Made by a program: the position numbers and the translations under genes. Of a stretch of 35,419 nucleotides of DNA, positions 14,675-21,343 are shown in pieces; position 1 is the first letter of the stretch; each line of letters starts with the position of its first letter. This stretch comes from a virus: the UHGV virus genome UHGV-0163616, one strand, 5' to 3'. The notes below the pieces were generated by a model that was given only the letters and a program-made list of their open reading frames with translations, was not told the origin of the DNA and searched no databases.

Positions 14675-16090
14675 TCAACCTACACCACAAGGAATTGAGT
14701 AACTGGAATAGTCGGGTTGCGCAGCCGACTCCGGGCAATGCATACACATCATCAGCGCATCAGCCAGGTTAGGAGATGGAATACCGAGCTTCTGCTTCAT
14801 TTCGACCTTAGTCATAAGCTCCAGCTTCCCGTTGTTATTGAATTTGCGCTGAATCTGCGTCAGTTCTGCAAACAGCTTCTCCAGCATCTTCTCGCCTATC
14901 GCTTCTTTGTCGAAACTCAGCATGTCGTCGTGGTCCGCATACTCACCGTGAACAACCGCCCGATATGTCAGATACAGCCTGTCAGCCAGCGCGTAATAGA
15001 ATTGCGCTCGCTTATTGCGGAATACATCGCCAATAGTGCGAACGTTGTCGCCCTGTACGACTTCATCAGCCCATGCTCCGGCCTGATACGGTGCATCTTC
15101 ATCGAATGGCGATTCGCTGCCCTTGAACATCGTGGCGGTGATTTTCTTACCGGAGAATGCTTCCGTTGTCTGTCTGCGCAGCCCAGCACCAACACCATCG
15201 CCATCCCACAAGTAGTGGTCAGCACCGTCTTCAATCGCCAGCGAAGTAGCCCAGTCAGCACCCTCGTTGATGTCCATCAGCAGACCTTCGGCAATACGCT
15301 TAACAACCGAACCGTGACGCGATGCATAACCTTTAGCATCTGGTCCTGTATCTGACGGGTCATGCGCAGAGACAACAGCGCCTTTCGCTTTCCATCCGAG
15401 TTTCTTGTGCGCATCGGTTGCGGCTTCAAGCCATTCACGTTTGATGATTGCCATATCACTTGCGCTTACTGGCTCACCAAGCCAGATGTGACGATACAGT
15501 GTCGGATTTCTGCGTTTACACTCTTCCATCTCCAGACGGAGAACTTCAGGAAAGTGCGGGTTGTCGGTGTAGTTCACCGTCAGCAGACAAATATCATCGG
15601 GAGGATTTACAACGAATCGCTGATAGGTATCGTCAAGGATGTTCTTCGGGTTAAAGCTCACCCATATTTCAGAGAACGGCTTACGGATGGTCGGTATCAG
15701 AATATCCCATGATTCCTTCGTTACCGCTTCCGCTTCCTCCACCCAGCAGATATCAATACCTTCTAACGATTTAATCTTCGTCGGGTTGTTTTTGATGCCG
15801 TAGAACATGAATTCAGCATTCGTTCCGAGATGACGAATCATGGAACGCTGAATTTCAAACTCAGCCGAATACCCTTCACGCTCGATGGTATCTTCAAGCA
15901 ACCGGATTACCGAATCGCTGATACTGTTTTGCAGTTCACGAGCGCAGAGAATACGCACCGGCTGCCGACGCGCCGCTTCAACAAGCAGCCTCGCAATTGC
16001 CCATGACTTACCGCTACCTCGACCGCCTTTGGCGACTTTGTAGCGATGCGCCTCAATGAACGGTTCAAAGATAGGATTAATCGAGGTCAT
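14675..16090 (-). CDS. Terminase large subunit (Sf6 gp2-like, headful packaging)
   Basis: 471 aa; Walker A KGGRGSGKSW near N-terminus; C-terminal nuclease-like region; overlaps small terminase stop. Confidence 0.9.
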   Translation of the reverse strand: MTSINPIFEPFIEAHRYKVAKGGRGSGKSWAIARLLVEAARRQPVRILCARELQNSISDSVIRLLEDTIEREGYSAEFEIQRSMIRHLGTNAEFMFYGIKNNPTKIKSLEGIDICWVEEAEAVTKESWDILIPTIRKPFSEIWVSFNPKNILDDTYQRFVVNPPDDICLLTVNYTDNPHFPEVLRLEMEECKRRNPTLYRHIWLGEPVSASDMAIIKREWLEAATDAHKKLGWKAKGAVVSAHDPSDTGPDAKGYASRHGSVVKRIAEGLLMDINEGADWATSLAIEDGADHYLWDGDGVGAGLRRQTTEAFSGKKITATMFKGSESPFDEDAPYQAGAWADEVVQGDNVRTIGDVFRNKRAQFYYALADRLYLTYRAVVHGEYADHDDMLSFDKEAIGEKMLEKLFAELTQIQRKFNNNGKLELMTKVEMKQKLGIPSPNLADALMMCMHCPESAAQPDYSSYSIPCGVG

Positions 16091-16527
16091 TTTCCGAATA
16101 GAGTGCTCATCGGTGATGTTTCAATCTGGATTGCGCCGCCGTCTTTGCCTGTTAGCTCGTGATCAACCTTGTCGCGCCATTTATCCTTCTGTCGGTTCTT
16201 GAGCCAGAAGATGGCAGCTGTTGTATCAGGCGGGTAATACTTCTCAAGCGGAGTTTCGACAATTCTGTTTTCAATAACACGAATATCGATGTCTGGAGCC
16301 ACGAAGCCCATAGCGCGTTGATAAAGACGGTCACTAACTTCTGCATCAGCGACGGCCTTACCCTTTTTTATGGACTCCGAAAACTCAGGATAATCAAGCT
16401 TCCACTTGTTAATAGTTGACTCACTGACTTCGAAGAAATCAGCAAGCTCTGCATCGGTGTAGCCCAGCAAGCACAGTTTGCGTGCCTGTTCGGCGTACGC
16501 CTCTTGATACTTTGTTGGGCGCGCCAT
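16087..16527 (-). CDS. Terminase small subunit
   Basis: 146 aa with N-terminal HTH-like region (LGYTDAELADFFEVSESTINKWK); immediately upstream of and overlapping the large terminase. Confidence 0.7.
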   Translation of the reverse strand: MARPTKYQEAYAEQARKLCLLGYTDAELADFFEVSESTINKWKLDYPEFSESIKKGKAVADAEVSDRLYQRAMGFVAPDIDIRVIENRIVETPLEKYYPPDTTAAIFWLKNRQKDKWRDKVDHELTGKDGGAIQIETSPMSTLFGK

Positions 16528-16529
16528 GT

Positions 16530-16772
16530 TTATGCTCCGGTAGTGAACAGGTCTAACGCTTCCTTCGATTTACGCACCGCTTCGAATGTGCGGATCGTGA
16601 TATCCGAATTAGCGCCGCCTGACTGGAAGTGAATTTTGAATAGCTCAAGCTTCAGTTCGTCAGTGCCAATGAATTGAAATGCTTCTTCTGCGGCTGCGTT
16701 CTGGTTCATGACCAGTTTATAAATCTCTAACTGGAATTTCTGTTCTTCAGTCATGGGAATAATCTCTGCCAT
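16530..16772 (-). CDS. Hypothetical protein upstream of terminase
   Basis: 80 aa ORF ending 3 nt before the small terminase start; no recognisable motif. Confidence 0.5.
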   Translation of the reverse strand: MAEIIPMTEEQKFQLEIYKLVMNQNAAAEEAFQFIGTDELKLELFKIHFQSGGANSDITIRTFEAVRKSKEALDLFTTGA

Positions 16773-16876
16773 TGTTGGCTCCGTTTATCCGTTAAAAGGG
16801 ATATCAGTTAAGTTATCCCGTGTAGGGTATAAGCCATTATCAAAGCCACTCAGTAAGGAATGGCTTTTGTGATAGC

Positions 16877-16901
16877 AATAAAAAAGGCCGCCTGGGCGAC
16901 C
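16877..16901 (-). terminator. Candidate intrinsic terminator (GGUCGC-CCAG-GCGGCC then UUUUUUAUU on minus strand)
   Basis: 6-bp GC-rich stem (one G-U pair) with tetraloop and U-tract read from sequence, between a degraded-looking region and the packaging genes. Confidence 0.45.
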
Positions 16902-17311
16902 TGTTAGTTGTTCACAACTTCCATTGAAGGTCCGGTATGTCGAAAAATGATCCGCATTTAGGGGGATTTTCCATTCTTGCCCTCTCTTCAGCCGCTTTGT
17001 AATAAGCCATTGGCCTTTTCACACCATCAGCACCAGTGATATATTCAACGCCTTCCTTCTGGTCTTTGTTTACGGAAACCATCGCAACATCTTCCACTTG
17101 TTCGTTATCGATTCAGCGGATGTCTTTCCATCAGTCCGCCACCACAAAGAATCTTTTTTGCCATAAGGCTGGAGGTTCATCTTTCAGTGGCTGCCAGTGT
17201 TATTTCCCCACTTACTGGCCTGGGTTGTTTCGCTGTACTGCCGTTAATTGGTGGCCCAGAATAAATTCCGGTTTCATTATCAAGCCCACCCGTAAATGGG
17301 CTTTGTAATGG

Positions 17312-17569
17312 CTACTTCACTTTTGCTTCCGCTCGCTTACGCCGGCGCTCTTCTTTCCTCTCGGCTTTTGCCATGTCCATGAATGCCTGCATGATCGAGT
17401 TCCGCATCATGTAGCTAACAAAGTGATGATTGACACAGCCGTTGAGGCGCAGCTGCTCGCCAAACTCATCCACCGAGGCCAATGCTTCCATCATGCCCTT
17501 CTCGCCTTTCATGAACTCTGAGAAGTCGCGCCCCGCTCTGGAGGCGCATTCAATAACCCGATCACTCAT
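17312..17569 (-). CDS. Hypothetical protein, downstream partner of KilA-N protein
   Basis: 85 aa; start overlaps KilA-N stop (ATGA); Lys/Arg-rich C-terminus. Confidence 0.5.
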   Translation of the reverse strand: MSDRVIECASRAGRDFSEFMKGEKGMMEALASVDEFGEQLRLNGCVNHHFVSYMMRNSIMQAFMDMAKAERKEERRRKRAEAKVK

Positions 17570-18099
17570 CCCGGAAGCCCGGGGATCGTAATCTGCAGCT
17601 GGTTAGCCAGGGAGTTAATCTCAGCGACCAACACTGGCTTCGTATAGCGCCATGCTGCCAGCCCTTGTCCGCAGAAGCTCGCCATGTCTTTCTTCTGGTC
17701 AAACTCATGACATTTCATGTTGAGCTGCGCACTTAAGCTGTTGCGATGCTGAAGTTCTCCGGTGAAGTAGTCATCGAGGACTTTATAGGCCGCGTACTTG
17801 AACCCGGGGTTTAACCAAGCCGCATAATCGTAAGCAACAAACTTCCCGCCATATGTTCCACCGTGTACACCGCGCTCAGTAAAAACCACAGATTCGTGGT
17901 TTTTCTCCAGCTCGGCTAAGAACTCTTTGGTCTGCTTGTTTCGCAGGTAGTGGTACGGAGATTCAGATTCACTTTTACCACTGGCTTTCCACATATCAGT
18001 GAGGCAGATCATTCCTGATTCATCAACACGGATCGGTGTATTAAAAAGCGTGATTGCTTTCATAGCGTCTTTACCTTTTAGAAAGTGAGCCTGTCTCAC
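17566..18099 (-). CDS. KilA-N domain protein
   Basis: 177 aa; N-terminal region (ICLTDMWKASGKSESESPYHYLRNKQTKEFLAELEKN) resembles the KilA-N DNA-binding domain; sits between lysis cassette and terminase. Confidence 0.65.
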   Translation of the reverse strand: MRQAHFLKGKDAMKAITLFNTPIRVDESGMICLTDMWKASGKSESESPYHYLRNKQTKEFLAELEKNHESVVFTERGVHGGTYGGKFVAYDYAAWLNPGFKYAAYKVLDDYFTGELQHRNSLSAQLNMKCHEFDQKKDMASFCGQGLAAWRYTKPVLVAEINSLANQLQITIPGLPG

Positions 18100-18207
18100 A
18101 GAAAAGCCGCCCGAGAGAGGTCGCCACCTATAACGGCATTTCTCAGGCTCGCTTACTGAAAGGCTCTCGTTAATATGCGCGTGAGATGCGCTGTGAAATT
18201 CAGATAT

Positions 18208-18231
18208 AAAAAAGCCCCGCGAATGCGAGGC
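18208..18231 (-). terminator. Candidate intrinsic terminator downstream of Rz (GCCUCGC-AUUC-GCGGGGC then UUUUUU)
   Basis: 7-bp stem with one G-U pair plus U6 tract on the minus strand, read from sequence. Confidence 0.5.
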
Positions 18232-18406
18232 TAAATCCTGGTATTTGTAATGAACTGGCTCTTATCTCAACGCAGCCCCTTACTGCGCGCCAGATGCTCA
18301 ATATCAAGCATCAGCAATGAGATGTTTAATCTGGATTTACTCCAGAAGTGATCACCACCCTGTCTACAGAGCCAGATGTGAAGGATGATGAGTAAAATTA
18401 TCGCTA

Positions 18407-18844
18407 TCATCGAAGGCATTGCGTCCTGATGTACTCCTGCAGGTAGTTAACCTGCGCGGTTATCCTGTCGATTCCACTTCGTAGACGGTAATAATTGAGT
18501 TCAGCATCTGCTGTAAGTCTTGGGCTTTCTCCATCGCCCATGCTGCTGGCTCCGGTCGTTGACTTTGCACAGGTGGCGGCGACTTGCAGGCGCTTACGCC
18601 CAGCAGAAACATCAGCACGGAGGCTTTCGATAGTCGCGTTAGCATCAGCAAGCTCCTTTGTATATCTGGCATCGAGTTCCGCTACGTCACGTTGACGCTT
18701 CTGCATATCAGCGATTGTGGATGTGGCTTTATCGCGCTGCTCTTTGTAGGCGATGGCGTTATCACGGTAATGATTAACAGCCCATGACAGGCAGACGATG
18801 ATGCAGATAACCAGAGAGGAGATAATCGCGGTGACTCTGCTCAT
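18407..18844 (-). CDS. Rz: Rz i-spanin
   Basis: 145 aa; N-terminus [31 protein letters not shown] near-identical to lambda Rz; start overlaps R stop. Confidence 0.9.
18460..18645 (-). CDS. Rz1: Rz1 o-spanin (lipoprotein) embedded in the +1 frame of Rz
   Basis: Embedded ORF with signal peptide and lipobox ([20 protein letters not shown]) followed by Pro-rich segment; start chosen at internal ATG 18645. Confidence 0.7.
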
Positions 18845-19317
18845 ACCTCAATCTCTCTGACCGTTCCGCCTGCTTCTTTGAATTTTGCAATCAGGCTGTC
18901 AGCCTTATGCTCGAACTGACCATAACCAGCCCCCGGAAGTGAAGCCCAGATATTGCTGCAACGGTCGATAGCCTGACGAATATCACCGCGATCAATCATC
19001 GGTAAAGCGCCACGCTCCTTAATCTGCTGCAATGCAACAGCATCCTGGCTTTTAGGAGAGAAGTCTTTCAGGCCAAGCTGCTTACGATAGGCATCCCACC
19101 AACGGGAAAGAAGCTGGTAACGTCCGGCGGCTGTTGATTTGAGTTTTGGGTTTAGCGTGACAAGTTTGCGAGGGTGATCGGAGTAATCAGTGAATAGCTC
19201 TCCGCCAACAATGACGTCATAACCATGATTTCTGGTTTTCTGCCGTCCGTTATCAGTTCCCTCCGACCACGCCAGCATATCGAGGAACGCCTTACGTTGA
19301 TTATTGATTTCCACCAT
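18841..19317 (-). CDS. R: Endolysin (lytic transglycosylase), lambda R
   Basis: 158 aa; matches remembered lambda R essentially end to end ([35 protein letters not shown]...). Confidence 0.95.
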
Positions 19318-19624
19318 CTTCTACTCCGGCTTTTTTAGCAGCGAAGCGTTTGATAAGCGAACCAATCGAGTCAGTACCGATGTAGCCGATGAACACGCTA
19401 GTTATATAAGCGAGATTGCTACTTAGTCCGGCGAAGTCGAGAAGGTCACGAATGAACCAGGCGATAATGGCGCACATCGTTGCGTCGATTACTGTTTTTG
19501 TAAACGCACCGCCATTATATCTGCCGCGAAGGTACGCCATTGCAAACGCAAGGATTGCCCCGATGCCTTGTTCCTTTGCCGCGAGAATGGCGGCTAACAG
19601 GTCATGTTTTTCTGGCATCTTCAT
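19301..19624 (-). CDS. S: Holin/antiholin, lambda S (dual-start MKM)
   Basis: 107 aa; matches remembered lambda S107 essentially end to end, including the Met-Lys-Met dual start; DNA upstream matches lambda S leader. Confidence 0.95.
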
Positions 19625-19915
19625 GTCTTACCCCCAATAAGGGGATTTGCTCTATTTAATTAGGAATAAGATCGATTACTGATAGAACAAATCCAGGCTA
19701 CTGTGTTTAGTAATCAGATTTGTTCGTGACCGATATGCACGGGCAAAACGGCAGGAGGTTGTTAGCGCAGCCTCTTGCCACCCGCCTTCACGAAGCCAGC
19801 CATTGCGCTGGTTTTCTTTTATGCAAAGCACACCGCACCGTAGCCACAGCGGATAAGGTGATTATTTTTGTCTGTCTGGTATTTGGTTTGATGTGCTTTC
19901 AGAAAGGCCGTGCTT

Positions 19916-19950
19916 AAAACGCAAAAAGCCCCGAGCTATTAACTCAGGGC
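19916..19950 (-). terminator. tR'-like intrinsic terminator of the short PR' leader RNA (GCCCUGAG-UUAAUAG-CUCGGGGC then UUUUUGCGUUUU)
   Basis: Perfect 8-bp stem and U-tract on minus strand, about 30-65 nt downstream of the PR' start; read from sequence. Confidence 0.7.
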
Positions 19951-19986
19951 TTTATTTAACGAGTGCATTTATCCATCGTTAGGTCA

Positions 19987-20015
19987 AATTTACCCAACTT
20001 TATTCAAAAAGTCAA
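19987..20015 (-). promoter_or_regulatory. Late promoter PR' with qut-like pause region (-35 TTGACT, 17-bp spacer, -10 TAAATT; AACGAT pause motif just downstream)
   Basis: Minus-strand sequence ATTGACTTTTTGAATAAAGTTGGGTAAATTTGACCTAACGATGG is almost identical to the remembered lambda PR'/qut sequence; 40-70 bp downstream of the Q stop. Confidence 0.75.
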
Positions 20016-20057
20016 TATTATGCCGTTAATATGTTGCCATCCGTGGCAATCATGCTG

Positions 20058-20681
20058 CTAACGTGTGACCGCGTTCAAAATGTTGTCTGCAATTGACTCT
20101 TCCTTGTGGCATTGCACCACCAGAGCGTCATACAGCGGCTTAACAGTGCGTGACCAGGTGGGTTGAGTAAGGTTTGGGATTAGCATCGTTACAGCGCGAT
20201 ATGCGGCGCTTGCTGGCATTCTTGAATAGCCGACACCTTTGCATCTTCCGCACTCTTTCTCGACAACTCTCCCCCACTGCTCTGTTTTTGCTATATCAAC
20301 CGCACGACCTGTACCGTGGCAATCTCTGCATCTTGCGCCCGGCGTCGCGGCACTACGGCAATAATCCGCATAAGCGAATGTTGCGAGCACTTGCAGTACC
20401 TTTGCCTTAGTATTTCCTTCAAGCTTTGCCACGCCACGGTATTTCCCCGATACCTTGTGTGCAAATTGCATCAGATAGTTAATAGCCTTTTGTTTGTCGT
20501 TCTGGCTGAGTTCGTGCTTACCGCAGAATGCAGCCATTCCGAATCCGGCTTGTGATTGCGCCATCCCCATAGCAGCCATCACATCAGTACCGGAAAGAGA
20601 GTCAGAAGCCGTAGCCCGTGGTGAGTCGCTCATCATCGGGCTTTTTGGCGAATGAAATTTAGCTACGCTTTCGAGTCTCAT
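20058..20681 (-). CDS. Q: Late-gene antiterminator Q (lambda type)
   Basis: 207 aa; matches remembered lambda Q essentially end to end. Confidence 0.95.
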
Positions 20682-21343
20682 GCGCCTTCTCCCTGTACCT
20701 GAATCAATGTGAGGTTTCCGCAGAACACTGCGCCAGTATCGATATACATCTGGTTGGCAAATTTGAGTGGTTTCACTGCTGGCGTATGACCAAAGATGAA
20801 CGTGTCCGCGCCTTTGATTTCTTTCACGCTCCCGTCTTGTGAGTTGCTGATTCGTTCGCGGTTCCAGATTACCTGCTGATAATCAACTGGCTTTCCAAAT
20901 TCGTATTCGTCACAAGGATAATCGGCGTGGCAGATGACATATTTTTTACCTTTACTCACCAGTTCAATGATTAACGGAAGTTCATCTGCTTTATGGGCAA
21001 GAGCTTTAGCCAGAATTTCTTTGTCGTAATCGAGATTAAAGAACCAGCCACCGCCATTAAACAGCCAGTGATTGACGTTTCCACGCTCTGATAAGCCATC
21101 AATCATCATTTGCTCATGGTTTCCACGTACAGCTCTGAACCAGGGGAATGTGATTAATTCCAGGCATTCGACGTTCTCTGTACCGCGATCAACCAAATCG
21201 CCAACCGAGATAAGCAGGTCTTTTTTAGTGTCGAATCCTATCGTCTCCAGTTTTTTCATCAGGTTCGTGTAGCATCCGTGCAGATCGCCAACTACCCAAA
21301 TATTTCGGTATTTGCTGCCATCAATTTTTTCGTAATAGCGCAT
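20678..21343 (-). CDS. ninI: Ser/Thr protein phosphatase (lambda NinI / PPase)
   Basis: From internal ATG ([24 protein letters not shown]...) 221 aa, near-identical to remembered lambda phosphatase; GDLHG and GNHE metallophosphatase motifs. Confidence 0.9.

Follow-up and report, generated by a model that had tools for sequence, protein, structure and literature searches.

How are two small accessory genes expressed when they lie in the late region of a P22-like phage, between the genes for lysis and those for packaging? The question is raised by virus genome UHGV-0163616, of which a stretch of 35,419 nucleotides (hereafter the window) was analysed, and in which positions 18063 to 17312 of the minus strand encode a KilA-N protein of 165 amino acids (aa) and an overlapping partner of 85 aa. 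The initial annotation of the locus had treated the pair as an insulated, moron-like unit bracketed by terminators and perhaps concerned with anti-repression. The gene pair itself is already known, ordinary and very common, and adds nothing new; what looks new is a structured leader RNA of 131 nt (18191 to 18061) that lies between a terminator-like hairpin and the KilA-N gene and ends with its start codon. On the strength of sequence comparison, the terminator and the pseudoknotted leader, which would occlude the Shine-Dalgarno (SD) sequence, appear to form a family of cis-regulatory RNAs that has not been described before, though it is of a general kind already known. All coordinates below refer to the minus strand unless stated otherwise.

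Anatomy of the leader RNA

When 84 loci were aligned over the 260 nt preceding the KilA-N start codon, a terminator-like hairpin (T1, 18232 to 18213) and the following ~150 nt were conserved beside unrelated upstream sequence, and diverged variants differed from one another in a complementary manner. The conserved module begins with the terminator hairpin and its U-run, followed by a hairpin of 4-6 bp with the pattern GCGC-N7-GCGC (H0, 18191 to 18177), a short linker and a strand of 6-7 nt (PK5, 18169 to 18164). Next comes a long interrupted helix consisting of P0, P1 (18150 to 18144 with 18093 to 18087), a 6-nt bulge on the 3' side (18099 to 18094), P2 (18143 to 18134 with 18109 to 18100) and P3 (18128 to 18119), and a spacer of 7-10 nt then leads to the start codon (ATG, 18063 to 18061). 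The basal helix P0 pairs the SD sequence AAAGG (18078 to 18074) with an anti-SD sequence CCUUU (18163 to 18159), and PK5 pairs with PK3 (18117 to 18112), which is located in the 3' internal loop below P3; the leader thus contains a pseudoknot, and conserved unpaired bases are present as well.

T1 is the first element of this module. It has the sequence AGCCUCGC-AUUC-GCGGGGCU followed by six U residues, folds with -14.1 kcal/mol (z -4.35; 0/200 shuffles as good), and is kept, with loop changes and compensatory stem changes, across phages with unrelated upstream Rz genes. Of 93 distinct contexts, 86 have a terminator-like hairpin with a T-run located 7-27 nt before H0. The initial annotation had correctly recognized T1 as a terminator-like site while overlooking that it belongs to a conserved module of terminator and SD-occluding leader. 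The module is also present upstream of distant genes encoding KilA-N and ORF11CD3 domains and of one gene encoding P22_AR_N and ORF11CD3 domains.

Regarding smaller features of the leader, the linker between H0 and PK5 (18170-18176) carries an AT(C/T)AA-like motif in most variants (ATATTAA, ATATCAA, ACATCAA, AAATCAAA). An integration host factor (IHF) site was considered for its ATCAA motif and dropped on inspection by eye, the downstream TTR being absent and the full consensus not being matched. A kink-turn was likewise considered for the 6-nt bulge and rejected by eye, there being no in-register tandem G.A pairs.

Evidence for a conserved RNA structure

When very divergent leaders were aligned with MAFFT alone, the helices were out of register and RNAalifold found little; the register problem was solved by building a covariance model (R1) from a subset of seven well-aligned leaders. 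R1 gave a sole match in the window, of 141 bits (E 9e-32) on the gene strand compared with 23.5 bits on the other strand, and found copies in all related loci. Regarding its specificity, one match was obtained among 80 loci with a 16-nt seed (in Mangrovibacter) and none in the 79 unrelated loci (600 kb) sharing that seed. A genome-wide scan of 596 Gb with a DNA pattern was discarded, since 16 specified bases are too few and the matches were those of chance, only one of 80 being confirmed by R1.

When 36 distinct leaders were fitted to the model, 95.5% of cells were paired compared with 75.0 +/- 0.8% after column shuffling (0/500) and 37-49% when the partners were slid by 1-3 columns; changes on both sides were seen in 30 of 35 pairs, and the covariation score was 0.537, against 0.199 in shuffled and at most 0.072 in slid alignments. 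It counts against these figures that alignments fitted to a model lean towards structure and that many of the sequences are closely related. The count was therefore repeated on 32 leaders aligned with MAFFT alone, onto which the structure of the window sequence was projected, giving 88.3% paired cells compared with 82.9 +/- 0.4% in shuffles (0/500), 20 compensatory pairs compared with 11.9 +/- 1.7 and a score of 0.214 compared with 0.128 (0/500 each); further pair types were not significant among these 32 leaders (22/500).

In a set of 55 distinct leaders the pseudoknot takes the form of 24 different duplexes, at least 17 of which are perfect Watson-Crick helices of 5-8 bp, with examples including CGAGAG/CUCUCG, CCCGAG/CUCGGG, CACCGA/UCGGUG, CCAAGAG/CUCUUGG, CCAAAGA/UCUUUGG, CCCAGAG/CUCUGGG, CCAAGAA/UUCUUGG and CACAGA/UCUGUG, and two of the pseudoknot columns are divided between CG (25) and GC (16) and between CG (21) and AU (19). 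The pairs of SD and anti-SD covary too (UA/CG/UG and UA/AU), and variants with the SD sequence UAUAGG carry the anti-SD CCUAUA. On the gene strand G.U pairs outnumber A.C pairs (89:14 and 35:9), which points to an RNA made from the sense strand. The minimum free energy (MFE) fold of the window leader has -45.3 kcal/mol with the SD paired, and nearly every divergent variant likewise has a paired SD in its MFE fold.

Taken on this evidence, it is very probable that the RNA structure is real, and the leader is likely to repress translation, as far as can be told from the pairing of the SD. A search of Rfam 15 over positions 15500-21000 of the window gave nothing at E <= 1 except a chance match to snoU85 elsewhere, and a permissive search of the 221 nt at 18040-18260 gave at best mir-627, at 19 bits compared with a gathering score of 86. 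The searchable literature, including a survey of 224 motifs, yielded no account of the leader, and complements of PK5 and the anti-SD that might act in trans occurred in the window at chance level only.

Genes behind the leader

Leaders were oriented in the same direction as the flanking long genes or operon in 171 of 174 cases. The open reading frames (ORFs) that start at the ATG implied by the model encode KilA-N with ORF11CD3, Phage_pRha with or without ORF11CD3, P22_AR_N with ORF11CD3, KilA-N with P63C, ANT, HNH_3 with or without AP2, T5orf172/MUG113 (GIY-YIG-like) domains, tail-tip-like proteins, stand-alone homologues of the 85-aa protein and a few proteins of no recognized kind. By these sequence matches, the leader is a shared 5' module of Bro-network and homing-endonuclease-type genes, and its cargo of DNA-binding proteins would plausibly be harmful when mis-expressed.

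The 131-nt leader of the window, referred to as A-type, occurs in other Escherichia coli with 100% identity before Rha-family genes and with ~89% identity before GIY-YIG genes (loci H58-H67, H69, H73 and H74). The A-type leader or close variants were detected in 953 of 5426 complete E. coli genomes. In those genomes coding sequences called by the annotation pipeline PGAP overlap the leader, which suggests a systematic over-extension of start codons. In P22 a B-type leader (55.9 bits, E 7e-13; 2009-2147 of locus L219, corresponding to NC_002371 39508-39646) stands before rha, and the annotated start of the gene at 39575 falls inside the leader, the ATG implied by the model lying 69 nt downstream; the orf201 (rha) product would then probably have ~178 aa.

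Mosaic joints were found at or within the module, at 18232, 18134 and 18097. The occurrence of an identical leader before different genes, together with mosaic joints at the terminator, suggests that the module is also a unit of gene-cassette exchange in lambdoid late operons. In a Salmonella contig (AAHRTZ010000048.1; 1604-3257 of locus L089) three cassettes of leader and Bro gene are arranged in tandem, and the terminator of the next cassette begins exactly where the 85-aa gene, shortened to 59 aa, is cut off. A possible recombination joint is the T1-like hairpin formed by codons 7-14 of the 85-aa gene (GCGCCTCCAGAGCGGGGCGC).

Proteins encoded by the gene pair

The first gene of the pair (18063 to 17566) is the orthologue of HK620 hkbK, as assigned from Pfam, PHROG and identity to HK620. 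Its product was called a KilA-N protein in the initial annotation, and the call is borne out by a match to Pfam KilA-N (PF04383) with E 7.9e-16 and 58.3 bits (cutoff 23.8) at residues 19-113 of the ORF 18099 to 17566, spanning profile positions 6-106 of 107. A Bro-C or ANT domain had been suggested for the C-terminus; the profile search gives ORF11CD3 (PF10549) instead, with E 2.8e-13 and 50.3 bits (cutoff 25) at residues 121-173 and the whole profile covered, and the Pfam search found no ANT (KilA-C, PF03374), Bro-N or P22_AR_C domain in the protein at E <= 0.01. The protein also matches phrog_129, annotated as a transcriptional regulator (E 7e-62), and, weakly, anti-repressor families of PHROG (E 3e-4 and 6e-4).

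The gene starts at ATG 18063, as it does in HK620, Dewey, PhiR49_1 and RefSeq annotations of E. coli. A GTG start at 18099 was rejected as an extension made by the ORF finder, since it lies inside the leader RNA and all annotations as well as the start implied by the model give ATG 18063.

The AlphaFold2 (AF2) model of the KilA-N protein (predicted local distance difference test, pLDDT, 84) shows an N-terminal alpha/beta domain and two long C-terminal helices. Its best fold match in the PDB is the APSES DNA-binding domain of Mbp1, a match that is not significant (E 0.57) and would be consistent with the proposed relation of KilA-N and APSES domains. The two long helices of ORF11CD3 probably serve oligomerisation. 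We infer that the KilA-N protein is a DNA-binding regulator or an interference protein with a coupled small partner.

Regarding that partner, the 85-aa gene (17569 to 17312) is the orthologue of HK620 hkbL and was assigned from the ORF listing and phrog_875 (E 8e-54). The overlap claimed for it in the initial annotation is seen in the sequence, its start codon and the stop codon of the KilA-N gene sharing the letters ATGA. No Pfam family was found for the protein in the Pfam search; 138 homologues were collected, and every named one is from Enterobacterales. In these homologues C8 and C45 are invariant, H48 and H49 are nearly so, and the tail is basic; the four residues could form a metal site. 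The AF2 model (pLDDT 93) consists of three helices, including a long basic C-terminal helix, and a fold search of the model against the PDB returned generic helical bundles only (E > 1).

The 85-aa gene co-occurs with a KilA-N and ORF11CD3 gene in 88/88 close relatives, the count having been made among close relatives only. Its homologues also stand alone right behind a leader, and a domain of the same type is fused N-terminally to a T5orf172/MUG113 (GIY-YIG-like) domain (loci for the two arrangements: L123 220-354, L136 93-228 and L200), a fusion that ties the 85-aa protein to the same gene network. A stable hairpin without a U-run directly follows the stop codon of the 85-aa gene (17310 to 17275; -17.0 kcal/mol, z -3.78). 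It lies within the segment common to all relatives, homology reaching at least to 17275, and is possibly a 3' stabiliser, a processing site or a weak terminator.

In light of these domains, it is unlikely that the pair is an anti-repressor or inducer module in which the KilA-N protein, perhaps with the 85-aa protein, inactivates a repressor, whether that of its own phage, that of a co-resident prophage or that of a satellite, for instance a phage-inducible chromosomal island (PICI). KilA-N relatives (Rha, P22_AR_N, ANT) do belong to a Bro network that includes genuine anti-repressors (PMC10111431), and the weak PHROG matches given above and the RefSeq label of P22 rha as an anti-repressor, which is a database label, point in the same direction. 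These labels are annotation only, and a search of the literature found no experimental study of hkbK, hkbL or the function of ORF11CD3. Since the C-terminus is ORF11CD3, and not ANT or Bro-C, the anti-repressor role implied by the initial annotation is without domain support; furthermore, a gene expressed from the late transcript only would act once the phage's own repressor is already gone.

Genomic context, terminators and promoters

The pair lies among the late genes of a phage or prophage of P22/HK620-like (Lederbergvirus) type, all genes being on the minus strand. Over 22 kb the window has 96-97% identity, in mosaic pieces, to phiv205-1, Kapi1, HK620 and CUS-3. The ORF listing and profile searches give the order Q antiterminator (20681 to 20058), lambda-type holin (19624 to 19301), endolysin (19317 to 18841), Rz with Rz1 embedded (18844 to 18407), the cassette, a DUF2560 gene (16772 to 16530), the small terminase TerS (16527 to 16087), the large terminase TerL (16090 to 14675) and the portal gene, in agreement with the earlier placing of the pair between Rz and the packaging genes. 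An ORF of 50 aa (18267-18419) with a hydrophobic N-terminus overlaps the stop codon of Rz and ends 35 nt ahead of T1; it matches phrog_11822 (E 2e-37), and some E. coli genomes list it as a hypothetical gene.

Nucleotide identity to HK620 is 98.4% over the 1.5-kb region, and the KilA-N and 85-aa proteins are 100% and 98.8% identical to hkbK ('KilA-N domain-containing protein') and hkbL ('hypothetical protein'), respectively. The pair was matched in 230 phage records, including Stx-converting and Salmonella phages, and is present in 2722 of 5426 complete E. coli genomes. Pair and leader are kept while their surroundings vary: the holin, endolysin and Rz types differ upstream, the terminases downstream are of P22, lambda Nu1/A or P27 type, HNH or Gp49 genes are optionally present beside the pair, and one lineage carries the pair among tail genes. 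The slot between lysis and packaging genes is filled by rha in P22 and by HNH, Gp49 or nothing in other phages. Distant KilA-N and ORF11CD3 genes (51-81% identity; Cronobacter, Salmonella and Erwinia phage phiEt88) occupy the same slot between Rz and terminase, and are followed by other small ORFs or by none.

Both terminator-like hairpins of the initial annotation were recovered by the scan, T1 at 18232 to 18213 and T2 at 16902 to 16885, and both have stable folds; T2, a hairpin also followed by six U residues, folds with -11.9 kcal/mol (z -3.72; 0/200 shuffles as good). As a class, terminator-like sites are not enriched in the 4.5-kb region (7 compared with 4.8 +/- 2.4 in shuffles), and the support for the two hairpins therefore comes from stability and conservation. 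Comparison with eight relatives delimited a 254-bp indel (17118-16865) that contains an ORF of 61 aa (17097 to 16912; phrog_5425, E 1e-37) and T2. The insert is found in E. coli C4, where the ORF is annotated, and is missing from HK620, Dewey and most relatives, and the start of the ORF is probably ATG 17082. T2 is separated from the pair by a 214-nt spacer and the 61-aa ORF and lies within a separate indel, and it is therefore not part of the KilA-N pair; the bracketing of the pair by two terminators thus falls away. The insert can be described as a miniature cassette of its own, with its own terminator.

Regarding promoters, a scan that used the sigma-70 consensus only gave no passing site in the gene-strand interval from T1 to the ATG, and RNA structure begins ~21 nt past T1, which leaves no room for a promoter. 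Counts of promoter-like sites in the region are at chance level. The best such site (17018-17045 on the plus strand; TTCACA-16-TATATT with TG, 10/12) lies antisense within the 61-aa ORF.

These results make it quite unlikely that the pair is a classical moron, with its own promoter and terminator, expressed from the repressed prophage for the benefit of the lysogen and insulated by T1. The initial annotation had called the position a moron hotspot, and it is indeed a site at which different phages carry different accessory genes; terminators occur both upstream and downstream, and the window variant has a weak promoter-like TTCACA-N16-TATTAA after T1. However, no promoter for a classical moron was found on the gene strand, and sister variants have other sequences (GTAAAC among them) in place of the -35-like hexamer, while the helices of the RNA, the first of which begins 21 nt past T1, are conserved and covarying. 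As these include H0, the transcript is required to start upstream of H0. Moreover, an occluded SD would be unexpected for a constitutive lysogen gene, and the downstream terminator T2 is part of a different insert.

Proposed mechanism and its alternatives

We consider it reasonably probable, taking the model as a whole, that the locus is an exchangeable accessory-gene cassette of the late operon that is transcribed under control of Q only and has a ribosome-binding site closed by its leader. The cassette would comprise T1, the ~130-nt pseudoknotted leader, the gene for the KilA-N and ORF11CD3 protein, and the gene for the translationally coupled, basic-tailed helical partner of 85 aa. T1 would halt polymerase that is not modified by Q, so that the Q-antiterminated late transcript would be the only one to include the cassette. 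The initial annotation had already put forward read-through by Q-modified polymerase, and this seems the most economical reading of the lack of a gene-strand promoter, the structure ~21 nt past T1 and the orientation of 171/174 leaders. On the late transcript the leader would close the ribosome-binding site by default, and the proteins would be made only in small amounts or only once some event has activated the cassette. Candidates for such an event are cleavage of the ~30-bp helix by an enzyme such as RNase III, a switch between SD helix and pseudoknot, a factor or protein acting in trans, and temperature. Ribosomes arriving from the KilA-N gene would reinitiate on the 85-aa gene.

Besides the bias of model-fitted alignments, several points weigh against this model. 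We infer termination at T1, dependence on Q and translational repression from the sequence, and a few leader copies are present without an upstream terminator. Just after T1 the window variant has the weak TTCACA-N16-TATTAA site, in a region scanned with the sigma-70 consensus only; other variants do not keep it. Taken alone, the leader is only modestly stable (z -2.4), and its opposite strand has a slightly better fold. The ~30-bp composite helix has PK5 directly next to its base and PK3 near its apex, a geometry by which the pseudoknot and the SD helix P0 may be alternatives that do not coexist. Regarding the proteins, the PDB sequence-profile search gave no solved homologue of the KilA-N protein, and the fold searches of both AF2 models against the PDB were uninformative.

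A more elaborate version is doubtful, though it deserves mention: the leader would be a two-state riboregulator, flipped between pseudoknot and SD helix by a specific signal, and at the same time a portable 5' exchange module for Bro-network and homing-endonuclease genes. The signal might possibly be the level of RNase III, a phage or host protein (the 85-aa partner or a Bro-network protein among them), a small RNA or a metabolite.

Anti-phage defence, with the two genes acting as an abortive-infection or toxin-antitoxin pair, is very improbable. Two overlapping genes would suit such a system, and expression of P1 KilA is lethal. PADLOC gave a short match of the KilA-N protein to PDC-S22 (E 6.8e-9), which covers residues 60-90 only, that is, 31 residues of the shared KilA-N domain, and a match of the 85-aa protein to QatB at chance level (E 0.023); there was no full-length or convincing match to a defence protein in PADLOC for either gene. 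BstA is an abortive-infection protein with a KilA-N domain encoded by prophages (PMC8585504); however, it is located near the immunity region and expressed in lysogens, whereas the cassette is part of the late operon, has a terminator upstream and has its SD closed. The leader also serves single genes that have no partner.

Equally improbable is that the leader is not a functional sense RNA structure and is instead a DNA recombination linker, a set of protein-binding palindromes or an antisense RNA. In favour of such a reading, mosaic joints fall at or inside the module, the identical leader precedes different genes, a cassette joint in L089 falls on a T1-like hairpin, and the fold of the opposite strand is no worse. 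Against it, DNA-binding sites do not explain the covariation of helices 50-90 nt apart and of the pseudoknot, the excess of G.U over A.C pairs is that of the gene strand, and the structure keeps a fixed distance from the SD and start codon, the SD itself being one strand of a covarying helix. A role as linker and a role as RNA are compatible with each other.

Relation to known systems

The HK620 genes hkbK (HK620p38) and hkbL (HK620p39) agree with the window in gene order, ATGA overlap, position after Rz, T1 and leader, and differ in lacking the 254-bp insert with the 61-aa ORF and T2; the HK620 record annotates neither the terminator nor the leader. The P22 gene rha (orf201) lies in the corresponding slot between Rz/Rz1 and orf80 (DUF2560)/gene 3 and has a B-type leader, and the Phage_pRha proteins of relatives end in ORF11CD3, as does the KilA-N protein of the window. 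Unlike the window pair, P22 rha has no 85-aa partner, and, judging by its name and RefSeq annotation, its N-terminal DNA-binding domain would be Phage_pRha and not KilA-N. Henthorn and Friedman are said to have reported in 1995 that rha inhibits phage growth in IHF-deficient hosts.

Stable helices that pair the SD of phage genes, including homing-endonuclease genes, are known from T4, I-TevI and the lambda N leader, and the window leader resembles these in that respect; such pairing makes translation dependent on the way the RNA is produced or processed. For T4 late genes and I-TevI, read-through transcripts have a closed SD and late transcripts an open one, and the lambda N leader is opened by RNase III. 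The window leader has no sequence or Rfam relation to them and differs in its conserved pseudoknot, its fixed upstream terminator and the absence of an evident internal promoter. A further likeness is to P1 c4 RNA/ant, P22 sar/ant and Gifsy-1 IsrK-orf45-anrP, in which Bro-network or anti-repressor-like genes are silenced translationally by RNA structure or RNA-RNA pairing. IsrK involves a translationally inactive read-through mRNA behind a terminator. Unlike c4 and IsrK, the window leader has no match to the Rfam families C4 or IsrK and no trans partner above chance in the window.

Regarding the proteins, P1 KilA and the Bro network have the KilA-N domain and domain shuffling in common with the window protein (Iyer, Koonin & Aravind 2002), which differs from P1 KilA in lacking KilA-C/ANT. 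BstA likewise has a KilA-N domain in a P22-like prophage protein, and is unlike the window protein in its C-terminal domain, length, genome position and expression logic.

Significance

The module is very common and widespread among enterobacterial phages; model phages (P22, HK620 and Stx phages) carry it unannotated, and it causes mis-called start codons, for example in P22 rha. The leader may also help to explain why rha of P22 and phi80 is harmful only in certain hosts. Bro-network genes (KilA-N, Rha and Ant-like) are very common in phages, and a shared regulatory RNA would provide an experimental handle on their expression.

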